Shown piece after piece: positions 8,154-45,151 of a stretch of 64,000 bases of DNA. How positions within the stretch are numbered: the stretch's first letter is position 1; the number at the start of each line of letters is the position of its first letter. The stretch spans positions 1,952,001-2,016,000 of the forward strand of contig CBDCFN010000016.1 in the NCBI GenBank assembly GCA_965216315.1, read 5' to 3'. A program made the translations under genes and the position numbers. Source of the DNA: a bacterium (lineage in GTDB: Bacteria; UBA10199; 2-02-FULL-50-16; JAJFLM01). The notes below the pieces were generated by a model, which had not been told where the DNA came from, searched no databases, and saw only the letters and a program-made list of their open reading frames with translations.

Positions 8154-8434
8154 AGGAATGTTGCGTCTATTTACCGAAGATAAGCCTATGATATGAAAAG
8201 GGTTTCAAAAATTTTCAAGCGAGAGAGACGTCCTCTTCGAGGAAGATGACGCACGTCCTCAAATGTACTCTCGGGAGTTTATCTCAATCTATGTTAGCCG
8301 GGACGAGTTTTAAATAAACTTGGCAATCCGGATTTTGTTTTCGAAAAAACCTGTATACAAATGAATACATTAATGTGATTTTGCCTGTTTTTGTTAGCCT
8401 TTCTTAGCAACATCTCTCTGAAGAATGCGATGCC

Positions 8435-27478: not shown

Positions 27479-28354
27479 TTAGTAAGTCCAAAACTCTAGC
27501 AAGCGAGGATCTAAAGCATAAAGTCTCTCTTCAGTCTTGTAACGAATTGTCAAATCTGACTTTGTTGGATCCCACCGATAACCACGACTCTCATGTATGT
27601 ACGTGTTGAAAGGCATGCCTGGAGAGGCTATCGACGATGACGTAGACGGATATTTATCATCTGGATGTGGCACAATACCATGCGACCAGAGAATTTTCTC
27701 CGTAACACCGACATATTGATAGAGGTGAACGGCGCCCTCTACGAACGGACAATCAGAGGCCAGACCCAGGGTTTCCGTCAGAAGGCGATATAAAGCCACG
27801 CCGCCGAGATTGATCTCATAATCCAGAAATTCCACCAGGTTTTTCGTACAACGGATGGCGATTGTAGAAGTACGCGATTCCTCTGACCTAGCTACGATGC
27901 GCAAGTCCTGTGGAGTGTCTCTATCCTCACCATAATCGAAATGTAACGTTGTTCCCTCCTTCGCTCTGGCCGGAAGGTGATAACTCATAATGCAATACGA
28001 ATCAGCGGAGAATTTCCTGAACGCCCATCGGTCAGAATAGCCCTCTTCCATTTCATCATTATCTAAATCCGGCTTCGTCATGCTCTCCATGAACTCCACA
28101 ACCTGGCGAGATTGACTAATAAAAGTGTTTGCATGTGTGGGGTCCAAGGCAACACTTTCTAATCGCGGGGATCCTTCCGCGTCTTGAATGACGGGGACGA
28201 TCACGGAGCCATGCTCGGGAACGGCTCGGAATGTATCGAGATAGTTGTCAATGCCACCGGCGGTCATAAAAGTAGTGACGGGATCGATTCCAGATGTCGC
28301 GCAGATACTGACAGTCAAATTTGCCGTCGCTGAGCTCCCTACTGAAAATAACAT
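27479..28354 (-). CDS. hypothetical protein
   Basis: 291-aa ORF with GGAGG RBS; no recognisable motif. Confidence 0.65.
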   Translation of the reverse strand: MLFSVGSSATANLTVSICATSGIDPVTTFMTAGGIDNYLDTFRAVPEHGSVIVPVIQDAEGSPRLESVALDPTHANTFISQSRQVVEFMESMTKPDLDNDEMEEGYSDRWAFRKFSADSYCIMSYHLPARAKEGTTLHFDYGEDRDTPQDLRIVARSEESRTSTIAIRCTKNLVEFLDYEINLGGVALYRLLTETLGLASDCPFVEGAVHLYQYVGVTEKILWSHGIVPHPDDKYPSTSSSIASPGMPFNTYIHESRGYRWDPTKSDLTIRYKTEERLYALDPRLLEFWTY

Positions 28355-28661
28355 ACCCTCCTATCGGAGGACATACATAATAGTTTCATTGTTAACGTCC
28401 AGCGACGCATTTTTATGTTTAGATTATTAGACACTTCATGACGCAATAGTATAACGCCTTGATTCAACGATTCAATAATTGAATCATGCCTCAAATAATT
28501 GCTCAGGCAATATACACATCTCCCCCTGAATTCGATCCCTCAGCCGTGGCGTCTAATATTCGGAAGCTGGCAGTTACCCAGGCCGTGTCGGAGACCATAG
28601 GCGTCGAGACCTCTTGCACCTTTTGATTAGACGTCTTAGACTAAAGCCAGTTCTTTGAATT

Positions 28662-28717
28662 GGGGGCGATTTGGGTTCGACGGAATCGCCAGAAATGACG
28701 ATAGCAGGTCGAGGTTG
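28662..28717 (+). repeat. duplicated 5' end of tmRNA
   Basis: 53/56 identical to 28965-29020. Confidence 0.9.
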
Positions 28718-28964
28718 ACGTCATAGGGGCTTGCGTCGCCCCCTCCGGAAGCAAAGCTTGCGGGCCGATCGCAGAGCTCTCGGCATCTGAGGCACCAGAG
28801 GTGCTGATCCAAGCCTCCCCTTCTCGCTCGCGTTGCTCGCTAGACAACCTCGGCAAAACATATAAGGTGTTCTTTGAAACGATGAGGGATTGTTAAGGGG
28901 GAGAGAGTTTTTCTTCCCCTTAACTAGAAGCCAATCCGAAGCTGCGCTTTCGGTTGGCTGCAAT

Positions 28965-29321
28965 GGGGGCGATCCGGGTTCGACGGAATCGCCAGAAGTG
29001 ACGATAGCAGGTCGAGGTTGTCCGAACCTTGTCTAAAACGGACACAGGCTATAAACGCCGATCATGATGCGCCTTTGGCGCTTGCTGCTTAATTAAGCGG
29101 CCGTCTCTTAGGTTCTTGTCTGCGGGATTTAATGAGACGCCATTTGCAGACTGGCTCAGAGGACATTGTCTTCGAAAATCTGGGTGAGAAACTCCGAAGG
29201 CTAGCGGCCGAACCCCTGTCGATGGGGAAACTCGGTGGCGAATCACTAATCATCGACTAAGCCTGTAGCGATCGTCATGGAAGCCTTCCGGACGGGGGTT
29301 CGATTCCCCCCGCCTCCACCA
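28965..29321 (+). ncRNA. ssrA: tmRNA (357 nt), tag peptide (A)ADHDAPLALAA
   Basis: 5' GGGGGCG pairs with 3' CGCCTCC-A-CCA including the G3.U pair; T-arm GGGGGTTCGATTCCCCC; pk1 (CGAGGTT/AACCTTG, GTCCG/CGGAC); tag ORF 29057-29092 ending LAA-stop. Confidence 0.97.
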
Positions 29322-30762
29322 ATTGATAAGTGGTCGACGTTTTGCGAGCAGGGACCACGGCAAATGGTAGGAAAAGCGCAGGGTTTTGGCCGAAACGCGA
29401 AAGTTCGAGCCGATCTTTTTTAAGAATTCCTTTTGGGAGGAGTAATCGTCGCCACTCGCCAGCGGACCCGCTTGGTGAGCCGCCTGGAGGAATTCGAGGC
29501 AGGGTTCGAGCCAACCCATTGCCCCGGTCTCAAGGGCCGTCAGCTTTTCCTCTAAACGCACCTTCTGTTTCAATAATGATTCCTTCTTGGCTTGATACTC
29601 GACGCGATCGATGATGCCGTCGAGATGGGCGTCCAAGAGACGATCAAGCTTGCCCTGAATGGCCGGCATCTCCCGGTCGAATTGTTCCTTAAAGCGTGCA
29701 AGGGGTTGGCGAGAATCCTGCTGCTCCTTGGCCCACCACGCGATCATCTGTTGATAGGCGTCAGCCGGCAGAGCGACCTTTGCGATCGCGGTGCTGATTT
29801 GTTTGGCTAAGTCTTCCTCTCGGACAAAGGGCTCGGTACACGGGCCTTTCTTCTTGGTGCAGCGATAATAGTGATATTTCTTTTTCTGTCGCTCTGCCGT
29901 GATGGCGCCGTCACAATTGGCGCAACTCGCCAGGCCAAGAAAGGGAAATAAGTGCTTACGATGTTTGTGAGGCACGCCGCTCTTGGTCAGCAGACCTTGC
30001 ACCTTATCGAACAAGTCTTTCGTAATAATGGGTTCGTGGGAGCCCTGATGCCACTCGCCGGAGAACTCGAATAAGCCGTAATAGAAAGACTTGGTGAGGA
30101 TGCGATAAAGGGCGGCGTGCACAAGTGGCTTATTTTTGCGGCTCAGCAAACCCCACTCGGGCGCCATGCGCCGTAGATCCTCCACCGTATAGCGCCCCGT
30201 CGCGTAGGTCTCGAAGAGTTTCTTGATCAGGGGCGCTCGCTCGGGATCGATGACAACCTTTCGGGTCTTTTGGTCATTGTCGTAGCCCAAGGGTGCGACC
30301 CCCGGCCATTCCCCACGCCTTAACTTTTGGCGAATCCCGCGGCCGAATATTCTCCGAAAGGTTGTCCACGTAATACTTGGACTGCCCAAAGGCGATATTG
30401 AGCATAAATTTGCCTTGTGGCGTGTTTTCGAACCAAAAAGTCGGGAACTTAAGCGCCTTAATATGCTCAGTATCTAAAAAGTAAATAATCCGGCCGCCAT
30501 CGACGGAATTGCGCGCGAGTCGATCCGGGTGCCAGGCGATAATCCCTTGGGCCTCACCGCGTTCAATGCGCTCCATCATGTCATTGAAAATCGGGCGGCC
30601 GGGGACCTTGGCCGTCTTGGATTCGGTAAAAATTTCCTTAATTGTTAAACGTTCTTTTTCAGCGAAGAGTTTTAGTTCCGCGATTTGTGATTCAATTGAT
30701 AAGACCTGTCGCTCTTCGCTGTCGCTGGATTTACGGGCATAGAGAAAATACTGGGAAGACAT
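29250..30762 (-). pseudogene. large serine recombinase (resolvase + recombinase + Zn-ribbon + coiled coil) split by a 1-nt frameshift
   Basis: YARKS catalytic motif, DRLARN, CANC/C..C Zn ribbon; removing one base at ~30341 joins ORFs 30274-30828 and 29250-30389 into ...SENIRRGIRQKLRRG (503 aa). Confidence 0.88.
29316..29391 (-). repeat. att arm, copy 1 of a 76-bp perfect inverted repeat (partner 30920-30995)
   Basis: Exact reverse complement of 30920-30995 by manual alignment. Confidence 0.95.
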
Positions 30763-30919
30763 GGTCGACGTGCTATCGCCTTTGGGCACGCGTGGCAAAT
30801 TGGAAATGGCGCCTCCCCGCGAAGGCAAGTGCGATCGGCGCCCGGCGCCGTCAGGTGCCGGCCAGGCGTCGCAGGGACTTTAAATTTCCCGGAAACGAAT
30901 GGGGACTTTCGCCAGTGCA

Positions 30920-31147
30920 GGCCAAAACCCTGCGCTTTTCCTACCATTTGCCGTGGTCCCTGCTCGCAAAACGTCGACCACTTATCAATTGGTGGTGCCT
31001 GTGGACCAAAATTCGAACTTGGTTTCAAGAAAATGCGTGACCGCGAGGCCACTTGCTGCAAAAGCCGCGCCGAGCGGTCACTAAATGACTATTCCACAGG
31101 CACCTTCCCGCCACGCGCTCGTCACGGCTTGTGCAGCCCCGTGTGCC
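30920..31147 (+). repeat. internal inverted attP-like site: 76-bp arm + GTGG core + 156-bp arm
   Basis: 30920-30995 is the reverse complement of 29316-29391; 30992-31147 is the reverse complement of 36657-36812 (149/156). Confidence 0.9.
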
Positions 31148-31444
31148 TCTCGTGCCGCCGCTTGGCCCAGCGCCGAGCCCCTGGCTACACAAGGCCTGGG
31201 CATCCGCCAGCCCCCGCACATAAAGCTGCCCAGGCCGGGGACGCAGAGGGCTGGGCGGGAGGGTGTTAGCTAGTAATGGACAATTTTTCGCCACCCGGAA
31301 GCGAGGCGCTGAAAAAGTATATAGAAATGATGGAGAATTTGTTGATTAAATAGCAGGATATCATGCCATATGTAGCAATAGCATGAAGATGTACATCAGA
31401 CTTACTAAGTATTTGACTATGGCCAACCAAAATACGGGGTTGCT

Positions 31445-32173
31445 ATGACGGTTATGAGCATTTTAGCGGGTATAATCGCCCTCTTAATTCTAGTCGTATT
31501 GAGCAACATTGCCAGTGCGGTACGAGGAAACAGACAGGCCATGGAATCAGCTTGCTCAGATATCAACGATAAAATTGGTGAGCTTAATAATATCTTATAC
31601 GAAATAAAAACCGCATCAGAAGAACTACTAGATGTGATCAAGACGGTAAGTGAAACTATGTATAATATGGAAGAAAAGACTCATGAACCGATCGTTGATA
31701 TATTTGGCCCTAATAACTTCCATACAATGTCTAATGATGAAAGGGAAAGCGTCAGCAGTGAGCTAGAAAAGAAAATTTCTGAGAACAAGACTTCGCAAGA
31801 CGAATTAGAAGATTGGATCAAAAGCTGGATCATATTTTTTTCACATACGTCATATATTTACGAGATTTTATCTAAAAAGGATCTTTTGAACAATGTAAGT
31901 CCCGAAACAAAGGAATTGCTTCAAGAGCGTCATGAACAAGCTCAAATGTTTGTTAAAGTAGTTGGTGAACTGAAGAATGGCAGCGATTTAAATAAGGTAG
32001 AACAGTTTCTGGCTAATATCAAAGACCAGAAAGCTAAAAAACTGGTAGTTCGATCGGCACTATACGAAATTTATGGGAAAAAGGTTCTTCTGAATATTAA
32101 GGACATGAAGGATTTAAAGATCTTTTCTGAAGCAACAAATATACCCATTAAATTCATTTTCAACTATCTTTAA
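31445..32173 (+). CDS. hypothetical protein with N-terminal TM helix and coiled coil
   Basis: 242-aa AT-rich ORF; hydrophobic residues ~5-22 followed by heptad-like segment. Confidence 0.75.
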   Translation: MTVMSILAGIIALLILVVLSNIASAVRGNRQAMESACSDINDKIGELNNILYEIKTASEELLDVIKTVSETMYNMEEKTHEPIVDIFGPNNFHTMSNDERESVSSELEKKISENKTSQDELEDWIKSWIIFFSHTSYIYEILSKKDLLNNVSPETKELLQERHEQAQMFVKVVGELKNGSDLNKVEQFLANIKDQKAKKLVVRSALYEIYGKKVLLNIKDMKDLKIFSEATNIPIKFIFNYL

Positions 32174-32238
32174 CATCTGACGATGCACTGATATGCGCAT
32201 AATAAATATACGGTGCATTGTAGTAGATACTGTGCGCT

Positions 32239-35200
32239 TTAGTTGTATTTCTTGAATTTGCACTGCTTGGCACCAATAAGCTTTGACCTACTGTTGAGCA
32301 TAAATGCTCCGCTGATATTCAATCTTCCCAATGCACCACCACCGAGATAGCCACTGCCAAACAAGTGCTTTTCGCCGAGAAGAGTCCAAATAATTGAATA
32401 ACCATTTTTCTTAAGATAGTTGTGTAATACAGACTTATTAATAAGAATTGACCGAGGCATAGAATCACTAAAAACATTCGGGTCGAAAGCTATTAGTTTT
32501 TTACCGGCACTGTAGAAGCGGCCATCAGTATAATGTTGTCTTATTCGTAATTTATCTATTAACCATTTCGCGGGTAGCTTGACTCGGATCGATTCGCTTG
32601 TTGAACAATCAATCGATGAACCACTACTAAGATATGCGTCATCCGTTACTAATATCTTAGCAGGCATTAATTTGTCACTTGGAGCGGTCGTCCAACCTTC
32701 ATGGTGATAATATGGAATGTAATAGTATAAGAATGGATGCGCCCAAGGATACTCACCCAGGAAAACTCTATAAAACTCATGAGATTCAGGCATCCACCTA
32801 CCCATGAAATCTTGCTTCTTTGCCCATAAATAAAATTTCTTCGCATCCCTCTTCTTAACAATATAGCTCTTTATCATATACCAAATTGTTCTTGTGGGTG
32901 TCTGATATTTATCTTTCTCTGGGGCGATCTCATTTTGCCACTGAATATGACTTTCGAGCGCAAGCCAACTAACGTGATTATCATCAGATGTTTCAATAAG
33001 GCTAAGGGGATCTGGCAAATCATTTTTGCTCTTTATCCATGTCGCATCAGATGCTCTTTTCTTCCAAGATTTGTGAATAGTGGTGTGTTGGTATAGCCCT
33101 AGATTAGGAACACCTTCAGGCTTAGAGTTTGGTGGATCTTTTAATATGCAAGATGGGTCAATATCCCTAACACTCAACTGCCAGGGTCCTTGATAAGGGC
33201 CATAGCGATCGGGCCACCGTTCTATTTTAAACTCGAAATTATCTCCAATCCGTGCCAATAGCTCATGAAAAGCAATCCACTGATATTTTTTTCCTAATCT
33301 TTCAGCTTTCTGCTCTGACTGACTTACTCGATAATAATTGACGCGTCTGTCGAAATCACTGTGTAGTTCGTTTTTCAATCCAAACTGCATAACTCGATGA
33401 ACTAACCATCTCTGAGCTAATGCCGCATCAAATTCATCAAGTGAATCACTTATATTTCCATGATCATCAATATACGGCTTAAATTCTCTTTCAAAAAATG
33501 ATCTTTTTGGCTGCTGCAAAGATTCAATGAATTTTCTCCAAGCAGCTTTTCTCTCTTTATAGTATTGTTTTAGTTTTTCCTTAGTGTCACTATCATCGTT
33601 ACCATAGACAATGAGTGGAATACTCACAATGCTTGAAGGGCTTGTAATTTGTCTATATAAACGCCTTTGCTGCTTATTTAATTTTTTAATAAATTGCTGA
33701 TATTGTTCCCTCCTGCTCGCACCTCGAGACATAAGAGGTCGGCTTGACCAGCAATTAAGTGTTGAATTAAGCTCATATCGTCCAAAGTCGCCAAACATGA
33801 CAGATGACCATACTTGACGTAATGCTCCATCGTCGGCTGTACACCTTAACTTTAGTCTATCTGCAGTCGGAACTCTTTTTGGCCATTTGCTGTTATACGG
33901 AGGCGCTATTTTCTTCTTACTAACACGTAATTTAAGCTTATTCTTTAAGGCGCATTCAATAATTCCCCGTGCATAATCGCGTAATAGAATTTGTACTGGT
34001 GGCTTGTTATCCTCAAAAATACTTTTATATACCCAGCTAGCTAAGGCCTTGAGCGCCTTTTTGTCGCCTTGGGACCGCAAGGCACAACCATACGCTATAG
34101 CGTAAATCCGCTCTGCGACATACATATCATTAACATTCTGAAACCCTCTCAGTAATCTCAGTACAATATTTAAGCGATTCGTTAAAATTGCAATGAGTGC
34201 CTTTGTACTTTTGTCTCTTAAAAATCTATTAGACGTTGTTAGGAACCATGATAATGTAATTGCACATAACTCTGCAGATTCATCGCTCAAATGGGATTTA
34301 TCGTACTCGGACCAAGCCCATGTAACAAGTCGATCGACAGCTTCCTTATTGCCATATTCGTCATGCAAATATATTGACCACCACGAATCACGATTAGCCA
34401 TTGAATACTTAAATAGGTGGCCATGAAGATAATACGCATTGAATGGATGTTCTGGTATAGGTGCAACAGACAGAAAAGCATTAAGTAGTAAAGTGTGGCC
34501 TCTCTCTGATCTAATTATATGGGTATTTATGAGCCTTATTGTATTTTGAAGACTATGCGAGAAGGCAGTAGGCTTTCGCCATATAATACTTTCGATAAAA
34601 GCTTCCTCAGCAAGCTGTAATTGATAGTGACCCTTTAAGAGATAAGGGGCGACCTCTATAAATTCACTTCCTTTTAAATGCTCTGGGCACTGTATTGATA
34701 ATGTTTCAATTATGCCCCGCCCTAGAGGTTGTGAAATAAATTTACCGAGCTTTCTACGTTTTGAAAAAAATCTTTTAGCAGTATTGATATTCTTATTGCC
34801 TTTTCCAAATTCTGATTCATACTCCTTGAAAATGTACCTACCAATTAAATGATCACTAAATTTCTGAAAAGGGAATCTATATTCGAATCCACTGTCGGAA
34901 TCCCCTCCACTCGTATATTTTGGGACTTTGACTAACAATAACTGCTTTTCCAACGCGCTAATTAAAGCATTGCAATCAACCGTGGGGTATGCATTTGCAA
35001 CTATTCTGATAAGCTCTTTGTCTGTAATTCTATCTGAGCGTCGTGAAACCATATCATGAGCTATTTGCTCAATAATGGTATCCCATATGACATAGTCACC
35101 TTTTTTATTTCTGCCTTTAGGTAGTGCGAATTGCTTAACAATATTCCTGCTAGCGAATTTAATGAAATTCTCAAAAATATAAGTAGCACCTTCATGGCCT

Positions 35201-36393
35201 CGAAATACCGGCTTTTGACCAGTTGTTTTCTTTCCACTGGGCTTAGTTCGGCTTTCGTAGGCTTTGCAAAATAATAGCAAGAATAGGGGGTTGCGGAATT
35301 CTGGCGCAAGCAATGGGACTTCTGGAAGAGGCAAATTGAATTCATTGAAAAATTTGTTTACGGCCTCCCACTCACGGAATTCAAAGCCATGATGTTCAGC
35401 AAAAACAAATTGTTTCATTTGCGTATTACTGAGAGTGTCATGCTCAAAGCCTGTCCTTACACTAATAGCTAATGCAATACATGGATATCTCTTAAGCGTA
35501 TCAATGAACTTTTTAAGCTTGCGCTTCCAAATTTTCGGATGATGCGTTTCGTTCAGCGCATCTATAACTATGAGGGAGCGGACACCTGTTTCTCGTCCAG
35601 CCTGATTTAGTAATTTAAACAATCCATTAGATGTCAGCACACCTTTCAATCCGATCTGGTGTATTATTTGGTCAGCTAAATCAGCGCTATCTGTAAAATA
35701 CTCTCCAAACGTCACTACTGTTGGAAGATGTTGTTGTCTCTTGATGCGCGTTTCCACCACGTCACATAAAAGATGTGTTTTTCCAGTGCCCGCTAAACCC
35801 GTTAATAATAGAAATGGCTTATTTGATAGTTTGGCAGAAACGCTGAGCGAAAACTCTTCAAAATTCCTAATCTCTTGTTGAGTTTTATATAGATATTCTA
35901 TGTCTGCCTTAATTCGGCTCAAGTACGATTCAAGTTCAGTATTTTTCTTAGTTTCTCTTGTTTTCCTATCGATGACCGATTTTTCATCTTCTAATAGTCT
36001 AACCAGCTTTCGACACAATGGTATTGCCTTTTTGCTGCGAGAACTAATAGACGGCCACGGAATTATCCTCGTATTAAATTCTTTTATTTTACTGAGCAAT
36101 GTCAGGAGAGCTGAGACTTCTCTTTTCAAGTTTCTGTAGGCGCTATCTATCTTTTTCTTCTTATGTTTATTAGATATTCGGTTAAAGGTTCTTGAGAAAT
36201 CGCCGAAATCCTTTCTAATTGAAGTATAAAATGTTTCTGTTCTTGCTATTCCATCAAATATTTGGGCAATCGGTACTTTAATGTTTAATTTAGGCGTATA
36301 CCGAGGGCCGGCTTTCTTCAGAACTTTCTCTAGGTGAGAATGAAGCCATTTTTTGTCGAGGAAGAGATTCTTAACCATATTTCGTGAGTGCAA
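32239..36393 (-). CDS. STAND/NACHT-type ATPase, Avs2 (AVAST type 2)-like putative anti-phage protein
   Basis: Walker A GLAGTGKT (~aa 199), Walker B LIVIDALNE, NPLFL, long helical C-terminus with ERLGKKYQWIA; AT-rich island cargo; start 36393 or 36378. Confidence 0.7.
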   Translation of the reverse strand: MHSRNMVKNLFLDKKWLHSHLEKVLKKAGPRYTPKLNIKVPIAQIFDGIARTETFYTSIRKDFGDFSRTFNRISNKHKKKKIDSAYRNLKREVSALLTLLSKIKEFNTRIIPWPSISSRSKKAIPLCRKLVRLLEDEKSVIDRKTRETKKNTELESYLSRIKADIEYLYKTQQEIRNFEEFSLSVSAKLSNKPFLLLTGLAGTGKTHLLCDVVETRIKRQQHLPTVVTFGEYFTDSADLADQIIHQIGLKGVLTSNGLFKLLNQAGRETGVRSLIVIDALNETHHPKIWKRKLKKFIDTLKRYPCIALAISVRTGFEHDTLSNTQMKQFVFAEHHGFEFREWEAVNKFFNEFNLPLPEVPLLAPEFRNPLFLLLFCKAYESRTKPSGKKTTGQKPVFRGHEGATYIFENFIKFASRNIVKQFALPKGRNKKGDYVIWDTIIEQIAHDMVSRRSDRITDKELIRIVANAYPTVDCNALISALEKQLLLVKVPKYTSGGDSDSGFEYRFPFQKFSDHLIGRYIFKEYESEFGKGNKNINTAKRFFSKRRKLGKFISQPLGRGIIETLSIQCPEHLKGSEFIEVAPYLLKGHYQLQLAEEAFIESIIWRKPTAFSHSLQNTIRLINTHIIRSERGHTLLLNAFLSVAPIPEHPFNAYYLHGHLFKYSMANRDSWWSIYLHDEYGNKEAVDRLVTWAWSEYDKSHLSDESAELCAITLSWFLTTSNRFLRDKSTKALIAILTNRLNIVLRLLRGFQNVNDMYVAERIYAIAYGCALRSQGDKKALKALASWVYKSIFEDNKPPVQILLRDYARGIIECALKNKLKLRVSKKKIAPPYNSKWPKRVPTADRLKLRCTADDGALRQVWSSVMFGDFGRYELNSTLNCWSSRPLMSRGASRREQYQQFIKKLNKQQRRLYRQITSPSSIVSIPLIVYGNDDSDTKEKLKQYYKERKAAWRKFIESLQQPKRSFFEREFKPYIDDHGNISDSLDEFDAALAQRWLVHRVMQFGLKNELHSDFDRRVNYYRVSQSEQKAERLGKKYQWIAFHELLARIGDNFEFKIERWPDRYGPYQGPWQLSVRDIDPSCILKDPPNSKPEGVPNLGLYQHTTIHKSWKKRASDATWIKSKNDLPDPLSLIETSDDNHVSWLALESHIQWQNEIAPEKDKYQTPTRTIWYMIKSYIVKKRDAKKFYLWAKKQDFMGRWMPESHEFYRVFLGEYPWAHPFLYYYIPYYHHEGWTTAPSDKLMPAKILVTDDAYLSSGSSIDCSTSESIRVKLPAKWLIDKLRIRQHYTDGRFYSAGKKLIAFDPNVFSDSMPRSILINKSVLHNYLKKNGYSIIWTLLGEKHLFGSGYLGGGALGRLNISGAFMLNSRSKLIGAKQCKFKKYN

Positions 36394-36656
36394 GAGTATA
36401 TTTTAATCATACCGAACAACAGGGAAAACATTTATCCAATGTAGTGCTTGCCGCGGGCCCGATTCGGGGGTGCGGGGGGAGAAGCGGGCCCGCGGCCCCG
36501 GCTTCAAGTGGCGTCTTTCAATCTATGGCGAGGCCTGGAGTCAAGCGACGGCCCACTGGGACCGTGGGCGGTGCAGGCCGAATGCCTGAGCGCCCGGCCT
36601 GCGTAGCCTTGGCGAAGCAGGCTAGCGAAGGCATGAGGCTTGCTCAGCCAATTTAG

Positions 36657-36812
36657 GGCACGCGGGGCTGCACAAGCCGTGACGAGCGCGTGGCGGGAAG
36701 GTGCCTGTGGACGAGGCATTTAGTGACCGCTCGGCGCGGCTTTTGCAGCAAGTGGCCTCGTGGTCACGAATTTTCTTGAAACCAAGTTCGAATTTTGATC
36801 CACAGGCACCAC
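36657..36812 (-). repeat. att arm, copy 2 of the 156-bp inverted repeat (partner 30992-31147)
   Basis: 149/156 identity to 30992-31147 in reverse complement. Confidence 0.93.
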
Positions 36813-37207
36813 AAAATTTGCGCAGCCAATTTTGTCCCTATATTCCATATACGATATGCGCCATGGCGCAAATTTTCGTATATAGAATATCGTATAGGGT
36901 ATATGGGGACTTATTGCTGACTTTGAATCAACAAAGTAACAATATAATCCTGCGATTGCCTGCTTTCCAATATGGAAGATAAACATAAACAATATCTCGA
37001 ACGTATGTATCCGTTACGGAGCACTAAAAGATAATAATACAAAGATGGGAGATATTGTCCGTATATATCACAAAAATGTTAGTGAGCCCACAAAAGACAG
37101 AAATCGAATAACAGAATAGATATTCAATTAACCTATGATCATGCGGGCCGTATGATATCAGGGATGTGATTCGCAGGCGAGTTAACCAGCGGACTCACAT
37201 CTGGGGG

Positions 37208-37519
37208 TCAGTAGGCTTTTGAAGCTGCCTCTTGCTCTCTAATACGTGTAGTCATAATGTTATTCAAGAGCATTTTATCCTGCTTCTGTAGATCCGGAAA
37301 TCTTAGCTTCATTCTCATTTCATTAAGAGTCTTTTTATCTCTCTTCATTAGCAATCCGATAGCTTCATCAAAAAACGAAACGGAACCAACTAATTTTCCG
37401 CCAAACTGTATCTCGATTCTTGGCTGATCCCAATTGTCATTAATCAGAGTTCGTATCTTTTTTCCAGCTTCACGAGAAATGATATCTTCACCGCAAATTT
37501 CTGGGACATTAATTATCAT
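37208..37519 (-). CDS. STAS-like (DUF4325-type) small protein
   Basis: 103 aa from ATG 37519; SREAGKKIR and SVSFFDEAIG motifs; overlaps upstream stop. Confidence 0.75.
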   Translation of the reverse strand: MIINVPEICGEDIISREAGKKIRTLINDNWDQPRIEIQFGGKLVGSVSFFDEAIGLLMKRDKKTLNEMRMKLRFPDLQKQDKMLLNNIMTTRIREQEAASKAY

Positions 37520-38390
37520 TGAAAATTCCTTCTTCTTCTCTGAGAATATCATAATAACTTTCACCATCTAAATTAATCTGAAAATCTACGCACGTTCCCA
37601 TAAACGATTTTTGAGCTTTTTTGTAATCGTATTCGCTGCGATCATATTTCAGTGCAATTTTTGCCTTGCCTGAAAAAATGTATAGTCTTCCTGAATTGTG
37701 TCTGAGAGCTTCTTGTATTATTTGATAGCCTCGACCACCTTCTATTTCATCTCTTGTTGTTAAGCTTTCTTTCAATAGGCGCTGGATTGCATCCTTGTCA
37801 GTTCCTAAGTCCTCATATCGCGTACGTAGTTTATATGGTATTCCAACTCCAAAATCTAAAAAAGCTATGTGCATGTTATGAGATCGTCCCCAAGAACCAA
37901 CGCAGGCATAACAAGTACGCTCTCCACTATGGTCTAATGTATTTGTGAGTAACTCTGTAAGAATGAGTCGTGCCATATCTTTGAGGTCTGGGGTGAATCT
38001 AGGAGCGTTCGCGGCTATTATAGCAAGCATGTCATCTAGAGACATAGTATTGTAACTGTCGAGCCTCCGAAGTTGGCACATCTTCTCAGTTACCATAATG
38101 CTTTGAGGGCCATCTGGTTTACTAAGATACCTTATAGCCCGCAATGCATTTTGGGCGCGCCTGGCCGAAGGCAAAGTTATTCTTATTTTATTGTTTCTGC
38201 CCCACGCTAAATCTGTCAGGCCACATAAGAAACATACGGAAAGTGCGCTAACTTCAGTAGTTCTCTTGAGGTCGAAGTGAACTATTGAATTTTCTATGCC
38301 GCGCACTTTACGGACTGCCGCCAATAAGGAATCAATGTAGGCCACCGTCAGCTGTTTGGGGAAAGGAATGTCGATAGTGCCGGGGATCAT
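37509..38390 (-). CDS. STAS-like + GHKL/HATPase (anti-sigma-kinase-like) protein
   Basis: ELLTNTLDHS (N box), DFGVGI (G1), GGRGY (G2), GT (G3); N-terminal FDL...SALS STAS-like segment. Confidence 0.78.
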   Translation of the reverse strand: MIPGTIDIPFPKQLTVAYIDSLLAAVRKVRGIENSIVHFDLKRTTEVSALSVCFLCGLTDLAWGRNNKIRITLPSARRAQNALRAIRYLSKPDGPQSIMVTEKMCQLRRLDSYNTMSLDDMLAIIAANAPRFTPDLKDMARLILTELLTNTLDHSGERTCYACVGSWGRSHNMHIAFLDFGVGIPYKLRTRYEDLGTDKDAIQRLLKESLTTRDEIEGGRGYQIIQEALRHNSGRLYIFSGKAKIALKYDRSEYDYKKAQKSFMGTCVDFQINLDGESYYDILREEEGIFNDN

Positions 38391-38762
38391 AGATGTAACC
38401 TACTGAAATATATAGACTATGTAAATCAATAATTGCAGATAATTATATATAACATCATAATAGGTGTTTAAATTCATATACTTATGAATAATTTAAATCC
38501 CCGGCATCAAGGGGGCTGGCATCATGAGCTGCGCTTCTATCAATCAGCCTGGCAAGCGGAAGTAATATCGTTTCAGAAGCCATAGTAGTTGAAGTTACGG
38601 CACTCCCACGGCACTGGCTAATTTTTTCTTGAGTAATTTCTTTTGCTTACGCCGATCCGCGGAGGATTCGACGAGCCTTTCGCAGAAGGCGAAAATTTCC
38701 ACCGTGCGATTGCCAAAATAGGCAATCGCATCCTCACGAAGCGGTGAGGACGAGCAAATCCC

Positions 38763-38778
38763 CCCCCCACCTCCACTA
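38763..38778 (+). repeat. degenerate direct repeat of the tmRNA 3' end
   Basis: CCCCCCACCTCCACTA vs CCCCCCGCCTCCACCA at 29306-29321 (14/16); coincides with the end of the island-like region. Confidence 0.55.
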
Positions 38779-38786
38779 TTCAGTGT

Positions 38787-38872
38787 GCGTCCAAGAGGCG
38801 ATCCAACTTGCCTTGAATGGTCGGCATCTCCCGGTCGAATTATTATTTAATGCGTGCGGCAAGGGATTGGCG
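38787..38872 (-). pseudogene. relic of a second, related serine recombinase gene
   Basis: 38787-38857 is 62/71 identical to 29629-29699; translates K**FDREMPTIQGKLDRLLDAH vs KEQFDREMPAIQGKLDRLLDAH. Confidence 0.88.
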
Positions 38873-41800
38873 CTTGCGAAGCGTTCCCAGGACAAGGAGA
38901 CAGAGAGCCAGTACAGCCCATGGCAGCCCCGCGTTCACTCTTTCCGCAAATGAAGCGCTTGTTAAGCTACAACTGGAGGAGCCGCCGCCGCCCTCCACTT
39001 CTAAACAATCAAAGAAACCGTCGCGGGGAGCACTGACATCCACTACGAGATGCTCGCATCGATCACATGCACCCAATTCAACTCTCTGGGGATCATCAGG
39101 GCAGTCGTCATTGCAGTCCAGTACGCCGTCACCGTCGCTGTCGACATCGTCGGTCTTATCCGGATCGTCGGGGCACTGGTCAACTTGCTCCAGACCGGTC
39201 TCCAGGCAGTCGGTGATGCCGTTCTGGTTTTCATCCAGGTCCGCTTCGCCGCAACCGCAGTCGCCCTCCTCCGTCTTGTTCGGATCATCAGGACACTCGT
39301 CATTGCAGTCCAGCACGCCGTCTCCGTCGGAGTCGACATCGAAATCCTTTTCCGGGTCCGTGGGACAGAAATCCTCGCTGCCGTCCGAGGGCATGCAGTC
39401 AGTATCACATCCGTCACCATCGACGCCATTGGCGTCGTCGCACTGCTCGACGCCGGACTGCACAAAACCGTCGCCGCAAAAAGCGGAGGTACAGTCGGGC
39501 AGACACTTATTATAGAACTGATTGGCAACGCCGTTGTCGCATTCCTCGCCCGGACCGACGATGCTGTCACCACAGAACGCCTGGGTACAGTTGTTCGTGC
39601 AACTGTTGCTATTGTCGTTGTCACCGTCGTCGCATTCTTCCGAGCCCTCGGGAATGCCGTTCCCGCAGCTGCCACCTTCAAGCTCGCAGTTTGCACAGAT
39701 CAGCCCTAAGGCGGCATAATCAACACCGTCTTCAGGATCGCATTCCTCGCCCGCTGCAATCTGCACGATACCGTCGCCGCACACGGCCTCGATGCATTCG
39801 TCACTGCAGGAGTCGTCGTTGACGCCGTTGCCGTCGTCACATTCTTCCACGCCGTCACCGGTCAACTGGACCACGCCGTCGCCGCAAATGTTCTCTGAAC
39901 AATCGTTCTTGCAGCTGTCATGGGGATCGGTATTGCCATCATCGCAGTCTTCACCGGCCTGCGGGACGCCGTCACCACATGATGGTTTTTCACACGTGTT
40001 GCTGCATTCATCGTCATCGGTGTCGTTACCGTCGTCACATTCCTCGCCGAGCGTGGCCTGTGTAATGCCGTCACCACATTCCTCGATCACGCATGTACTA
40101 CTGCAACCATCGAGCGAGTTATTGTTTGCGTCATCACACTCTTCGCCGTCGTCGAGATTGCCATCACCACAGCGTGCCTCGATTTCGCATGATTCGGAAC
40201 ACCCATCGCCATTGCTGTTGTTCCCGTCGTCGCAGTCCTCGGTACCGAACTGGACGAAGCCATCGCCACATGCGGCATTCAAACAACTCGTTGTACATCC
40301 GTCGTTGGGATTGACATTGCCGTCGTCGCATACCTCCGTGCCTTCGACGACGCCGTTTCCGCAGCGGGGCTCGACAATGCAGATATCGGAACATCCGTCG
40401 CCGCTCGACTGGTTGCCGTCATCACACTCTTCGCCGTCGTTCGGATCTAAAATGCCGTCACCACAACGCTGGTTGATGCAGCCCGGGCGGCAGCTGGCGT
40501 CGGGGTCGGTGCTGTTGCCGGCGCCGTTGTCACAATCCTCGCCGGGATCCGTGTTGCCGTCGCCGCAGAACGGGGCGATCACATGGCAGATCGCGTCGCA
40601 GTTGCCGGAATTCGGCGGTTCGCATTCTTCGCCCAGGAGCGGCTGGATGGAACCATCACCGCAGGATTCGGCGACACAGGTATCGGAACACCCGTCGCCA
40701 CTCGATTGGTTGCCGTCATCACATTCTTCACCGGCAACAGAATCTCGAATGCCGTCACCACAACGGGATAACACGCAACCCGGTCGGCAATTGGCATCGG
40801 GATCGTTGCTATTGGCCGCACCGTCATCGCATTCCTCACCGGGGTCCGGGTTGCCGTCGCCACAGAAAGGGGCAATAAGCTGGCAGGCCGCGTCACAGTC
40901 ATCGACCGAGGGGGGTTCGCACTGTTCGCCCAAGAGCGGCTGGATGGAACCATCGCCGCAGGATTCAGCGACACAGGTATCGGAACAGCCGTCCCCGCTC
41001 GACTGGTTGCCGTCATCACACTCTTCGCCGTCGTTCGGATCTAAAATGCCGTCACCACAACGCTGGTTGACGCAACCCGGGCGGCAGGTCGCGTCGGGGT
41101 CGGTGCTGTTGCCGGCGCCGTCGTCACATTCTTCGCCGGGATCCGTGTTGCCGTCTCCACAGAACGGGGCAATCACATGGCAGATCGCGTCGCAGTTGCC
41201 TGAATTCGGCGGTTCGCATTCTTCGCCCAGGAGCGGCTGGATGGAACCATCACCGCAGGATTCGGCGACACAGGTATCGGAACACCCGTCGCCACTCGAC
41301 TGGTTCCCGTCATCACAATCTTCTCCGCTCTGCTGAATGCCATCGCCGCAACGCTCCTCGCGGCAGAGATGACTGCAGCCGTCATTATCATCCAAGTCGC
41401 CGTCGTCGCATTCCTCGCTGGGCTGCTGAATGTTATCGCCACAGGCTTCCAGCTGACAGGTCGCCGAACAGCCGTCGTTGTCCGACTGGTTGCCGTCGTC
41501 GCACTCTTCATCATCGCCGCCACCGATCGTATTATCAGCACCGTCGGGGTCGAGAACACCGTCGCCGCAGCGCTCTTCACGACATAAATGATTGCAACCG
41601 TCACCGTCGATGAGGTTGTTGTCGTCGCACTCTTCACTGGGTTGCTGGATACCGTCACCACACGCTTCCAGTTTGCAGTTAGCATCGCAGCCGTCACCAT
41701 TGGACTGGGCGCCGTCGTCGCATTCCTCGTTATCGTCGAGCGTAGTGATGTCATTATCAATACCGTTTAGATCAAGAACCCCATCCCCGCAGCGCTCGGG

Positions 41801-44800
41801 TTGGCAAAATTCACTACAGCCATCACCGCTGACCGGAAGACAAACGGCACTGTTCGGATCGACACAGCCGCTGACGTCAGCCGTCGTGCAAGCCACATTG
41901 ATATCATCGCTGCAGACGCCACCGTCGTCGCACTGCTCGCCGGCAACACCTTGCGTATGACCATCGCCGCAAACGGCGCTCTTGCAGTCATCTGTGCATA
42001 AGTCGTGATTATCGATGTTGCCGTCGTCGCATTCTTCGGCGACGAGTTGTCCCGTCACCGGGTCGACAAAAACATTGGTGATGCCATCACCGCATTCCTC
42101 GATCTGGCAAGACCGGCCGCAGCCATCTTTATCCTGCGTGATGCAGACCGCGCTGTTCGGATCGGCACAGCTGGTTACATTATCAATGGTGCAGGGCACA
42201 TTGGGATCATCACTACAAACACCGCCGTCGTCGCATTCTTCGCCGGTATCCAGGACACCGTTACCGCAATTCGGCCCGCCGTTGCCACCATCGCCGCCAC
42301 ATTCCAGTTCGCAGGAATCCGGATGACAATAACAGTTGTCGGGTACATCCGGGTTTCCGTCTGCATCAAATTCGCATTCTTCCAGTGCCTCGATCTCACC
42401 ATTGCCACAGACGGGTCCTTGGCAATCGTTGCCGCAGGCATCATTGTCGACATTATTGCCGTCGTCGCATTCCTCGTCGTCGTCGGTGTTGGGGATGTTG
42501 TCAGGTCCATCCGGGTCGGTAACACCGTCCCCGCAGGATTCAATGTTGCAGGCATTGTTGCAACCATCACCATTCCTTTGAACACAGGGGGTCGGGTCGC
42601 CGTTGGCGTCGACCGGGCACTGCGAAACACTCGTACAGGCGCTTCCGCCTACAAGACAGTGTTGGCCGTCGTCGCACTCTTCGTCCTTGTCGAGGATACC
42701 GTTGCCACAGGATTCAAGTATGCAGAATTCGCTGCAGCCCGGGTGCCGGATCGGTTCACAAAAGTTGAACTTGAGGATCGGATCGCAGTCAAAATCAGAG
42801 GTGCACGCGGTGCCGGTTTGGGAACAAGCACCACCCTCATCACAGCTTTCAAAGGGAGGTTCAACGACACCGTTGCCGCATCGGGAATCATTCAATTCGA
42901 TCGCGCCCCGGTCGCAGGCAGCATCCGGTCCGTAGCGGTCCGTGCCAAGTTGGTCGTCGGCGGGACAATCGTTACTGCCCGTATCGTTGGCAATACTGGA
43001 CGCAAGCAGCGGGCAATGCGGTTCGCCGGCGATGCTTGATGAGGTGTCGCAGACGTCCAGGCCGGCATCCGTATCGGGCGATACCATAATGTCGTTCGTC
43101 ATCGCCGCAACAATCGCGCCGCTTAAGTCGCCAAGGAGGTTAAAGTCGTTCGAGTTCAGTCCACCGCTGTAATTGGGTCCACTCGCTTTGGCGGTGTTCT
43201 CTGCCAGGATCGCGTTTCTCATGCTCGTGTTGCTGTTGAGGCTGAAGACACCGCCGCCCTCCTCACTAGCCAGGTTGCGCGCAATCGTGGAACTGAAGAT
43301 ATTGATATAGGTCTCCGGGATGACAAAAGGATCCGTCGAACCCGGATCCGGAAAGACGATGCGCGCCTGCTGAAGTTCGGTGCTGCTAACATCCAGGTAA
43401 GCATTCGTCTGAAGGCTGTTTCTAATCGTATCATTGGTGACAATCTGGTTTCCATCGGTACGGCTTCCGTCGCCACCGTCATTGCGGCCACCATCCCCAC
43501 CGTCGTCGAAGATTGACTGGCAGATATTGGGATCCCCCAAGATGAAGAAACCGCCGCCCAGTTTGGCCTCGTTTTCAAAGACGCTGGTATTGGTAATGCC
43601 GACGTCACTGCACAAAAAAGCCAGTCCGCCGCCGAACTCGCCGGCGAGGTTGCTGTGGAAAGCGCTCTGTTCGATCGTGACATTACTGACAGCAGCGCCG
43701 ATCGCCCCGCCCAGTCCCGTGATACTGTTAACCTCCGAAGAGTCCTCAGCGATGACGAGGTTGTCTGTAAATGTAGAATTGCCGATGTTGAGGTTGCCCG
43801 CCGCCATGACGATGGCGCCCCCGATCGAGGACACGTTACCGGCAAATATTGAGTCCGTGATCTCGACTGTCGAAAGAAACTCCGTCGCGACGGCACCGCC
43901 AATGCCGTCTTCGCGGCCCACTGTCAGCGGATGCGGTGTCGTCAGCGTGCTGTTGCCTTTCAAGGTAGACTGATGGATTTCTAAGATACCGGGCCCGCCG
44001 CCACCGTTGTTGTCGTCACCTTCCTCACCGACGAGGAGTGCACCGCCGTTATAACATTCATCGCAGATCTCAGGTTGGCATTGGTCGGTACAACCATCTC
44101 CGTTCTGCGGGGCGCAGATTTCTTGACGATTGGCACTGCAAGGATTCTTGGCATCGCAGAAGGCACCGAGTTCCCCCGTCGTGACATCCAGGCAGCGGCC
44201 ACCGTCGTCGCATAACTCTGCCGGCGCATCGACGATACCATCCCCGCAGGATTCCAGTTGACAGAAGCTGTCACAGCCGTCCCCGGATTGCGGGATGCAA
44301 TCATTGGCGGCGCCATCGACGACCGGACAAGGATTATTGGCGTCGCAGACGGACCCGTCCGCGGAACAAAGACCGCCGTCATCACACTGCTCGCCATTAA
44401 CGGGTTCTTTTACGCCGTTACCGCAGGAGGCATTGTCTCCGCTGTTCAAGCGCCGACAATTGAAATCACAAGGAGGGCCGCTCGTATCGCCGGGATCGCA
44501 TTGCTCACCGTTTTCGACGATGCCATTGCCGCAGCTTTCCAATTGGCAGTCGGCACTACAGCCATCGCCATCGACTCGCTCTCCGTCGTCGCATTGTTCA
44601 CCTACATCCACCTGGACGATGCCATCACCACAGAACAGCGGATCGCAACCGGGATTGAATTTATTGATACTAAGGTTGTTGAATGACGCCAGGCCGCGAA
44701 CATGGGCGAGCCGGAAGAAAATGTCTCCATCGGGATCCGAGCCGAGACCGACAAGGTCCGCAACGCCACCGCCGTCGATAATGACCGGAGCCTCAATCAC

Positions 44801-45151
44801 AGGCAGTGCGTTGGGGCCGTTGCAGGCATTCAAATTGAAATTATCGACCTGCGTAAATTGGTAGATGCCGGCCGTGAGGACAATAGTGTCTGTCCCGTTG
44901 CCGGGAGTACAGCCGTCGACTTGTTCTTCGCGCCTCGAGGCTTCGAGCGCCTCGCCGAAAGAACATTTTCCGTCCTGGTCACCGCCGATCGTGGGAGGAC
45001 CTGACGGCAATTCGCCGCAGCGAAGTGGCGCAGCCGCCCCGCTATTACATTGGACCGTCGTATCGACGATAATCGTCGCCCCGTAGGCGCTGCCCGCAAT
45101 ACTTAAAGTGATTAAAAAGAAAAGAGTCTTACCCAGCGTCTTTGCGTTCAA
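38843..45151 (-). CDS. giant surface protein with Myxococcus Cys-rich (DUF4215-like) repeats, beta-helix/choice-of-anchor-Q-like region, TSP3-like repeats and C-terminal sorting signal
   Basis: Signal peptide; many CGDG...EECDDGN...DGCS..C units; GGA/GGG-N repeats ending [34 protein letters not shown] tail. Confidence 0.9.
40383..41317. repeat. intragenic tandem repeat, 297-bp period, about three units
   Basis: Anchor (G/A)TATCGGAACA recurs at 40383, 40680, 40977, 41274; units 1 and 3 nearly identical. Confidence 0.9.

Follow-up and report, generated by a model that had tools for sequence, protein, structure and literature searches.

What becomes of a recombinase whose gene runs across the site at which it inserts its own DNA? 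This question is raised by a 64,000-nucleotide stretch of a bacterial contig (GenBank assembly GCA_965216315.1, contig CBDCFN010000016.1, forward-strand positions 1,952,001 to 2,016,000), hereafter called the window, in which a large serine recombinase (LSR) gene is convergent with a transfer-messenger RNA (tmRNA) gene and ends inside it on the opposite strand. A first-pass annotation of the window had proposed that the C-terminus of this recombinase is switched by recombination. Our analysis indicates that such state-dependent tails are real and a trait of the whole recombinase family, in which a native tail is conserved across relatives and many integrated copies read antisense into a tRNA gene. 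Since the gene spans its own insertion site, inserting, excising or flipping the DNA rewrites the last 14 residues of the enzyme. We are quite confident of the anatomy described below, that is of the element, its three sites, the crossover core, the exchange of tails and a family-wide design that occurs in both orientations; the meaning of this anatomy is graded more cautiously.

The DNA between window positions 29316 and 36808 is a 7,493-bp integrative element, inserted by the LSR at the last bases of the tmRNA gene. The latter is located at 28965-29321 on the plus strand (ARAGORN; Rfam RF00023, 170 bits) and encodes the tag ADHDAPLALAA. Its 3' end forms the B arm of the attachment site, with the T-loop ggttcgattcc at 29297-29307, 10 nt from the core. 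Logan contigs from four runs (two samples, one study) were aligned to window positions 28001-38000, and in three of the four runs (X2, X3 and X4) contigs joined 29315 directly to 36809, skipping 7,493 bp, with four shared letters, CCAC, that fit both sides. The left edge of the element falls within the CCAC block at 29316-29319, which is the left crossover core (attL), and the right end (attR) covers 36657-36812 on the minus strand, with the P' arm at 36657-36808 followed by the core CCAC at 36809-36812. Contigs carrying the empty-site joint had a depth of 5-9.5, compared to about 2 for contigs inside the element. The shorter side of the joint measures 20-26 letters, because the end of a tmRNA is common to many organisms, and the longer side matches the window with 0 differences. 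The joint with its CCAC and the contrast in depth therefore confirm the ends of the element and indicate that it is carried by only part of the population. The attachment sites assigned in the first-pass annotation are thereby confirmed independently. The annotation had supported them with the argument that the two alternative tails keep the frame and share a stop codon; this is correct as an observation, but it lends the assignment little support, since arms that are 95%-identical copies of one sequence would agree in this way in any case, and the argument is close to circular.

The LSR gene occupies 29250-30762 on the minus strand, starts with the ATG at 30762 and encodes Resolvase, Recombinase and Zn_ribbon_recom domains (Pfam), the first in an N-terminal open reading frame (ORF) at 30274-30828 and the other two in a C-terminal ORF at 29250-30389. 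The catalytic domain matches PF00239 (E-value 1.8e-17) and reads FLYARKSSDSEERQ in the window; in 46 homologs, R10, K11 and S12 hardly vary. PF07508 and PF13408 were matched as well, and four cysteines are invariant in the homologs. A profile of the family matches SPbeta SprA and the A118 integrase, and the structural model of a relative, with long helices at 332-379 and 385-414 for the coiled coil inserted in the zinc ribbon, matches SPbeta, Bxb1 and PhiC31 integrase complexes; the fold matches include 9y66, 9dxh, 9iu2 and 4kis. By domains, profile and fold, the window recombinase thus belongs to the LSR integrases. One extra base near 30344, absent from the first-pass description, breaks the gene, so that its reading frame is not intact; a tblastn comparison with the closest homolog (P0002) follows frame +1 through ...SENI and frame +2 from RGIRQK... 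onward. Contigs with about 92% identity to the gene, which also adjoin the tmRNA end, are one base shorter at 30341/30343, and the frameshift is therefore either private to the assembled strain or an assembly error. As a consequence of the frameshift, the window copy is possibly inactive.

The C-terminal ORF ends with ...PLINWWRRGESNPRPEGFHDDRYRLSR and a stop codon. As the first-pass annotation had described, the gene crosses the core in frame after ...PLINWW and continues for 72 nt antisense in the tmRNA gene (29321 to 29250, with the stop). Of this antisense stretch, 29315-29250 supplies the final 21 residues with the stop codon, and the tandem tryptophan codons TGGTGG are the complement of the ...CCACCA end of the tmRNA; the resulting tail contains no recognisable degradation tag. 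The 25 residues before this tail, AKTLRFSYHLPWSLLAKRRPLINWW, are encoded by the P arm at attL (29316-29391, minus strand). This arm is the reverse complement of 30920-30995 at 76 of 76 positions, and the segment 30989-31147 is complementary to 36657-36815, with 95% identity over 159 nt (8 of the 159 positions differ). From these two repeats it follows that 30920-31147 is a complete site in inverted orientation, an intact "spare" attP on the plus strand, consisting of the P-arm copy at 30920-30995, with the core GTGG at 30992-30995, and the P' arm at 30996-31147.

The two alternative tails of the first-pass annotation are indeed encoded here. At the internal site, a plus-strand ORF ending at 31040 reads ...PLINWWCLWTKIRTWFQENA before its stop, and at the right end the arm reads ...WCLWIKIRTWFQENS before a stop on the minus strand, so that both sites encode CLW(T/I)KIRTWFQEN(A/S) and a stop. 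The native tail of the spare attP, CLWTKIRTWFQENA, lies at 30996-31040 with a T-loop-like ATTCGAAC at 31011-31018, and the right-end P' arm encodes CLWIKIRTWFQENS, with the T-loop-like motif at 36786-36793. One pair of identical inverted repeats flanks the LSR gene, and another pair flanks the cargo. The attP site is thus located inside the 3' end of the LSR gene and divides it into a body, on the P side, and the 14 final codons (CLWxKIRTWFQENx), which belong to the P' side; integration therefore parts the gene from its native tail.

A protein search identified 981 relatives of the LSR, typically 480-550 aa long. In many of these the C-terminal peptide, for example NWRRGRDSNPRY or WSGRLDLNQRPLGPEPSALPG, is a tRNA T-arm read in antisense, and others end in W..(V/I)RT(Y/H/F)F(Q/E), resembling the alternative tails of the window. 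The W..IRTWF-like tail that the first-pass annotation suggested looking for in homologs was thus found, and it is conserved. DNA was collected for 107 loci, 31 from genomes, 47 from metagenomes and 29 from 93 genomes of the phylum to which the window belongs; two or more of the metagenome loci are repeats of genome loci. In 86 of the 107 loci the LSR gene runs at its 3' end into a tRNA gene that lies on the other strand (27/31 genome, 38/47 metagenome and 21/29 own-phylum loci), and the loci without such an overlap are mostly fragments or run off the ends of contigs. The targets include genes for tRNA-Ser, Ala, Asp, Lys, His, Glu, Arg, Val, Gln and Asn, in addition to tmRNA. LSR matches are present in 32 of the 93 genomes of the window's own phylum, and the family also occurs in contigs of metagenome-assembled genomes (MAGs) labelled Omnitrophota and Planctomycetia; among viral contigs, 45 pattern matches were obtained, none of which is a relative. 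The own-phylum loci include a distant clade (L104-L113, 30-35% identity), the recombinases of which read antisense into tRNA-Gln, Arg, Asn or Ser genes.

We scanned 58 of the 78 genome and metagenome loci, leaving out short fragments, for an inverted copy of the gene end, and 33 of these included the whole 3' end of the gene along with 700 nt or more of upstream sequence. In 32 of the 33, all but L046, the final 84-140 nt of the gene recur as an inverted copy, in most cases with 100% identity, about 500 nt upstream of the matched region. In every locus with sequence beyond the inverted copy, the frame stays open into a short conserved tail, either WRCxYRx(I/V)RTIFQK or WWSLLDKVRTC(L/I)QQNL, followed by a stop codon. 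At the far end of the two loci for which 10 kb of flanking sequence was available, the inverted P' repeats have a length of 421 nt (L012) and 413 nt (L024) with 100% identity, delimiting elements of approximately 7.5 and 10.8 kb. The three-site design, with a tRNA/P site, the LSR gene, an inverted P/P' site, the cargo and a P'/flank site, is conserved across the family. Integrated-state tails of the relatives range from 1 to more than 35 residues, with a sequence that depends on the target. As these tails are of arbitrary length and sequence, the change is better described as the loss of a native tail.

Is the native tail under selection as a protein? It is conserved across relatives with 37-60% identity, and the codons outside the motif differ mostly synonymously, as with TCC and AGC for serine and the pairs CTG/TTG, AAG/AAA and CAG/CAA. 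In the reading frame of the tail, the ratio of nonsynonymous to synonymous differences (pN/pS), a crude measure obtained from short, non-independent pairs with no correction for multiple hits, was 0.62 in group A (17 unique tails) and 0.29 in group B (14 unique tails), compared to 0.91-0.94 and 0.52-1.72, respectively, in the other two frames; for the 20 coding codons upstream, read in frame, it was 0.58 and 0.53. The frame-specific pattern supports selection on the tail as a protein. An AlphaFold model of a flipped-state protein, P0010 (mean predicted local distance difference test score, pLDDT, 85.9), places the tail in a predicted helix at residues 503-518 (pLDDT 83-88) that follows a disordered linker.

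The DNA that encodes the tail also resembles part of a tRNA. When positions were counted after the six-base core TGG(C/T)GG and the best TTCGAA-like hexamer was taken, this hexamer started at +12 on the tRNA or tmRNA side, where it is the T-loop, and at +17 on the inner side, a spacing observed in 35 of 36 distinct loci and in the three arms of the window. For a Listeria integrase, the motif bound by the zinc-ribbon domain (ZD) has been described as shifted by 5 bp toward the centre in attB relative to attP (Rutherford et al., 2013, PMC3783163). Since the +12 and +17 positions match this 5-bp rule, the tRNA arm is an attB-type half-site that uses the universal T-loop, and the tail-coding arm an attP-type half-site that mimics it. 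This mimicry accounts for the "IRT" codons of the tail (ATT CGA ACT). Such a reading of the T-loop explains how one enzyme family hops among many tRNA and tmRNA targets, and it provides a rule for predicting the sites of the family.

The LSR cassette occurs in nature in both orientations, facing the tRNA in 86 loci and flipped in 2. In one of the flipped loci (L116, in G008), a tRNA-Ser gene on the plus strand (7984-8073) abuts the inverted copy (8068-8227), which is followed by an LSR gene on the plus strand (8357-9982) that ends with WRPLWDKVRTYFQSEYS and a stop. In the other (L118, in G089), the flipped cassette lies behind a tRNA-Glu gene, and the copy beside the tRNA reads ...APFTNMRSQRESDP, antisense into the tRNA. 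In a further locus (L117, G064:C6, 6011-7801), the cassette is flanked by a native-type tail on either side, PHLYTTRTLSAK... on one and PPWEQIRVYFHD with a stop on the other, and no tRNA lies nearby; this locus resembles one unit of a tandem array, as expected beside a tandem neighbour, or a context like that of attP. The tRNA-facing and the flipped arrangements have the same three kinds of site (tRNA/P, P/P' and P'/flank) in the same order, and we argue from the 86:2 bias, which exists despite this equivalence, that the arrangements differ functionally. Perfect inverted repeats of 76-140 nt and 413-421 nt in otherwise divergent elements call for ongoing gene conversion or homologous exchange, a process that would itself flip segments.

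Besides the LSR gene, the only ORFs of at least 100 aa scanned between the sites are a 242-aa ORF at 31445-32173 on the plus strand, which adjoins the spare attP and is divergent from the recombinase, and an ORF for an Avs2-type antiviral STAND NTPase of 1,384 aa at 32239-36393 on the minus strand (PADLOC PDLC02164 Avs2, 1287 bits, E=0), with weak AAA_22, NACHT and nSTAND matches in Pfam. Neither has a resolvase match. The 242-aa ORF gave no match in Pfam, PADLOC or PHROGs, and its best Atlas score, 0.80, is at chance level. The earlier remark that no directionality-factor gene is evident thus stands for the window in searches of Pfam, PHROG, PADLOC and Atlas, although the 242-aa ORF may have that function despite its lack of matches. 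In 12 of 18 relatives surveyed, among which no ORF was submitted for L063 and L071, a small gene of the Xre/Cro helix-turn-helix (HTH) type (63-98 aa) is located 320-720 nt, mostly 440-570 nt, beyond the spare attP and divergent from the recombinase, as at 8683-8946 in L012, at 8698-8958 in L024 and in ten other loci. An ArsR-type HTH gene takes its place in L035, and the survey revealed no HTH gene beyond the spare attP in the window and in L008. We consider the Xre-type gene a candidate regulator or directionality factor of these relatives. The sister elements in L012 (3564-11023) and L024 (230-11032) carry different defence cargo, consisting in one of a type II restriction-modification set with two methylases, and in the other of a TIR-domain protein and Hsp70/DnaJ-like genes.

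Several features of the surrounding DNA were also recorded. The upstream flank of the tmRNA gene and its first 56 nt are duplicated within 28642-28958 (28662-28717 is 95% identical to 28965-29020). This partial duplicate is situated 303 nt upstream of the full gene, with about 240 nt of short repeats in between, dozens of copies of which occur genome-wide, in the manner of repetitive extragenic palindromic (REP) or miniature inverted-repeat transposable (MITE) elements. A small contig (G000 contig C2, L005) was considered as a second tmRNA locus and rejected, since over positions 1-2222 it carries the tmRNA locus of a related strain, orthologous to that of the window and 77-96% identical to it (96% in the tmRNA, 77% in the upstream gene); it stops 7 nt short of the tmRNA 3' end, at the attachment site. 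About 2 kb to the right of the element and on the same strand as the recombinase gene, an LSR-like piece at 38784-38872 resembles the coiled-coil part of that gene. It was rejected as a tandem partner, being 89 nt long and 84% identical, with no adjoining attachment arm, and may be the relic of an older island. The piece is at the border of a low-GC stretch (36813-38800) with a phrog_3364 ORF that gave a weak HATPase_c match, and directly after that stretch a 2,102-aa ORF (38843-45151, minus strand) is located in a block of 58-60% GC.

How could the loss and recovery of the tail matter to the element? We propose that the native tail is a functional helix of the enzyme and that the integrated arrangement would be a parked state in which a tail-less enzyme is made. 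The full-length enzyme would be regained by excision, by a flip of the cassette onto the spare attP, or next to a neighbouring tandem element, and flipping might be brought about by homologous recombination between the perfect repeats or by the LSR itself. That the native tail gates the enzyme in this manner is a tentative suggestion, to which we would assign somewhat less than even chances. The broader hypothesis is possible, if doubtful, namely that the elements exert a self-contained control of their recombinase without a separate directionality factor: a helix would be lost on integration and restored by excision or by a flip between attL and the inverted attP, the arrangement of the DNA would set the form of the enzyme, and the reading of the T-loop would let the module move to any tRNA or tmRNA gene.

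Several observations weigh against this proposal. No joint with a change of strand, as expected from inversion, was seen at the window locus in the assembled contigs, a type of data that cannot show rare forms. The flipped loci could equally well have arisen by integration via the second attP. Canonical LSRs do not recombine attL with attP (Rutherford, 2013), and enzyme-driven flipping is thus not expected under the known rules. The frameshift in the window gene means that activity of this copy is not demonstrated, and the P arm has no mirror-image TTCGAA at the symmetric distance, the nearest conserved motif being TTCAAG, 6 nt further out. The distant clade L104-L113 has no inverted copy within 1.5 kb upstream. 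With respect to the tail, the crudeness of the pN/pS measure has been pointed out above, and its conservation is in part a matter of DNA, because the GTT(C/A)GAAC block hardly varies.

This last point leads to the alternative that the exchange of tails is a neutral by-product, in which attP merely overlaps the end of the gene, any tail will work, and conservation reflects nothing but the DNA motif bound by the zinc ribbon in the P' arm. It accounts for the fixed distance of the GTT(C/A)GAAC block in 35 of 36 loci, for the variation at the threonine of "RT" (T, M, S, A, I or K) and for the arbitrary integrated-state tails, and a "trivial explanation" was also put forward for dsiB, a comparable gene discussed below, in the account of McMurdie et al. 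(2011, PMC3146451). However, the codons outside the motif would not then be expected to differ mostly synonymously between relatives, nor pN/pS to be lowest in the reading frame, and no reason would be left for an inverted spare copy that is kept perfectly in 32 of 33 loci or for the 86:2 bias between arrangements with the same kinds of site. On balance, we regard a neutral origin as unlikely. Another explanation, that the inverted site is an accident of this locus, left behind by nested or tandem insertions or created by the assembly, could draw on the 8 differences between the P' arms of the window, on the frameshifted gene and on the presence of strain-variant contigs in the MAG. It is already contradicted by a sample contig that spans the inner site with 0 differences (X1 record 1, 30580-31141) and by the recurrence of the layout in many independent assemblies, and we give it almost no credence.

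Another alternative is that the arrangement switches the expression of the LSR gene and not the protein. The gene would be silent when convergent with the strongly transcribed tmRNA or tRNA and expressed when co-directional and downstream, the change in the tail being secondary. The gene is indeed convergent with the tRNA in the common state and directly downstream of it on the same strand in the flipped loci, and there is no strong promoter-like site within 30763-30919. The promoter and terminator scan of 28900-31500, with counts not above those in shuffled sequences, was however based on a crude sigma-70 consensus that may not apply to the host, and the conservation of the tail at the protein level would be left unexplained. 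We consider a switch of expression distinctly unlikely. In its strong form, the idea of the first-pass annotation is that of a directionality switch, in which the full-length enzyme, produced from the circle, only integrates and the tail-less enzyme, produced from the integrated copy, excises without a directionality factor, each state of the DNA thus encoding the enzyme form for leaving that state. This agrees with the lack of a recognisable directionality factor in the window and with the model in which the tail is predicted to be a separate helix behind a disordered linker, and archaeal integrases of the SSV type have been discussed as controlling directionality by partition of the gene (PMC8371274). 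Yet the tail-less, tRNA-facing state is the commonest in the assemblies (86 versus 2), which is hardly fitting for a state prone to excision, and the Xre-type HTH gene of many relatives may be a regulator or directionality factor. It appears very unlikely to us.

The proposal that a native helix is lost on insertion bears on a wider problem. Large serine integrases are valued as tools for genome engineering because they are simple and act in one direction, and a widespread natural design of this kind may answer the question of how elements without a known directionality factor exit from the chromosome. If the proposal is true, a conserved helix that is lost on insertion, together with a mirror-image spare site, would amount to a gating of recombinase activity that is encoded in the DNA. 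The cargo of Avs2, type II restriction-modification and TIR/Hsp70-like genes indicates that islands of this kind, 7-11 kb in length, spread anti-phage defence through little-studied phyla.

A close known parallel is found at the ssrA islands of Dehalococcoides, for which it has been described that dsiB always overlaps attL, with its stop codon in ssrA or in the neighbouring island, and suggested that dsiB may be fully functional only on the circular element or beside a tandem neighbour (McMurdie et al., 2011, PMC3146451). The core of the idea in the first-pass annotation is thus already in print for a serine integrase that targets tmRNA. According to the published description, the likeness consists of a serine recombinase (about 540 aa in Dehalococcoides) at the 3' end of ssrA, the gene of which overlaps attL. 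The Dehalococcoides islands combine a six-gene integration module, one gene of which encodes a further small serine recombinase (DsiA), with a directly repeated ssrA end, whereas the window element has only the LSR, the 242-aa ORF and Avs2, and its two ends have just 4 bases in common at the core. In that paper the word "inverted" has 0 occurrences, and neither a spare inverted attP nor a conserved native tail is described there.

Two systems with tyrosine recombinases provide further parallels. In the myxophage Mx8, attP is located inside the coding sequence of intP, integration creates a new 3' end, and the altered IntP stays active with a changed specificity, as summarized in a review (PMC6070905). 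Mx8 differs by its type of integrase and by having no inverted spare site, and the switch has been tested by experiment in Mx8, whereas the window element is known from sequence. The "suicidal" integrases of the archaeal SSV type, which are stated to be exclusively archaeal, have the site within their own gene, so that integration partitions the gene (PMC8371274). There, the gene is split well inside instead of losing a short tail, and no spare copy is present.

In the full-text literature, with subscription journals and supplements outside the search, we found no description of an inverted internal attP beside a serine integrase, and the available part of the Integrase-On-Demand paper contains nothing on such a site. 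The A118/LI, SPbeta SprA, Bxb1 and PhiC31 integrases are like the window LSR in domain set, fold, short core and the 5-bp displacement of the motif. To our knowledge, the large serine integrases of phages and other elements have their attP outside the gene, use protein-coding or intergenic targets and need a separate directionality factor, and we know of none that has been described with an inverted second attP bracketing its gene. Recombinases that act on inverted sites are familiar from other contexts, such as the small serine invertases Hin, Gin, Cin and Pin, and the yeast 2-micron circle, in which the gene for the tyrosine recombinase FLP lies between two long perfect inverted repeats, each with a target site. 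None of these is integrative at a tRNA or tmRNA gene, as the window element is, and our case for inversion is built on the two orientations in which the cassette occurs in nature.

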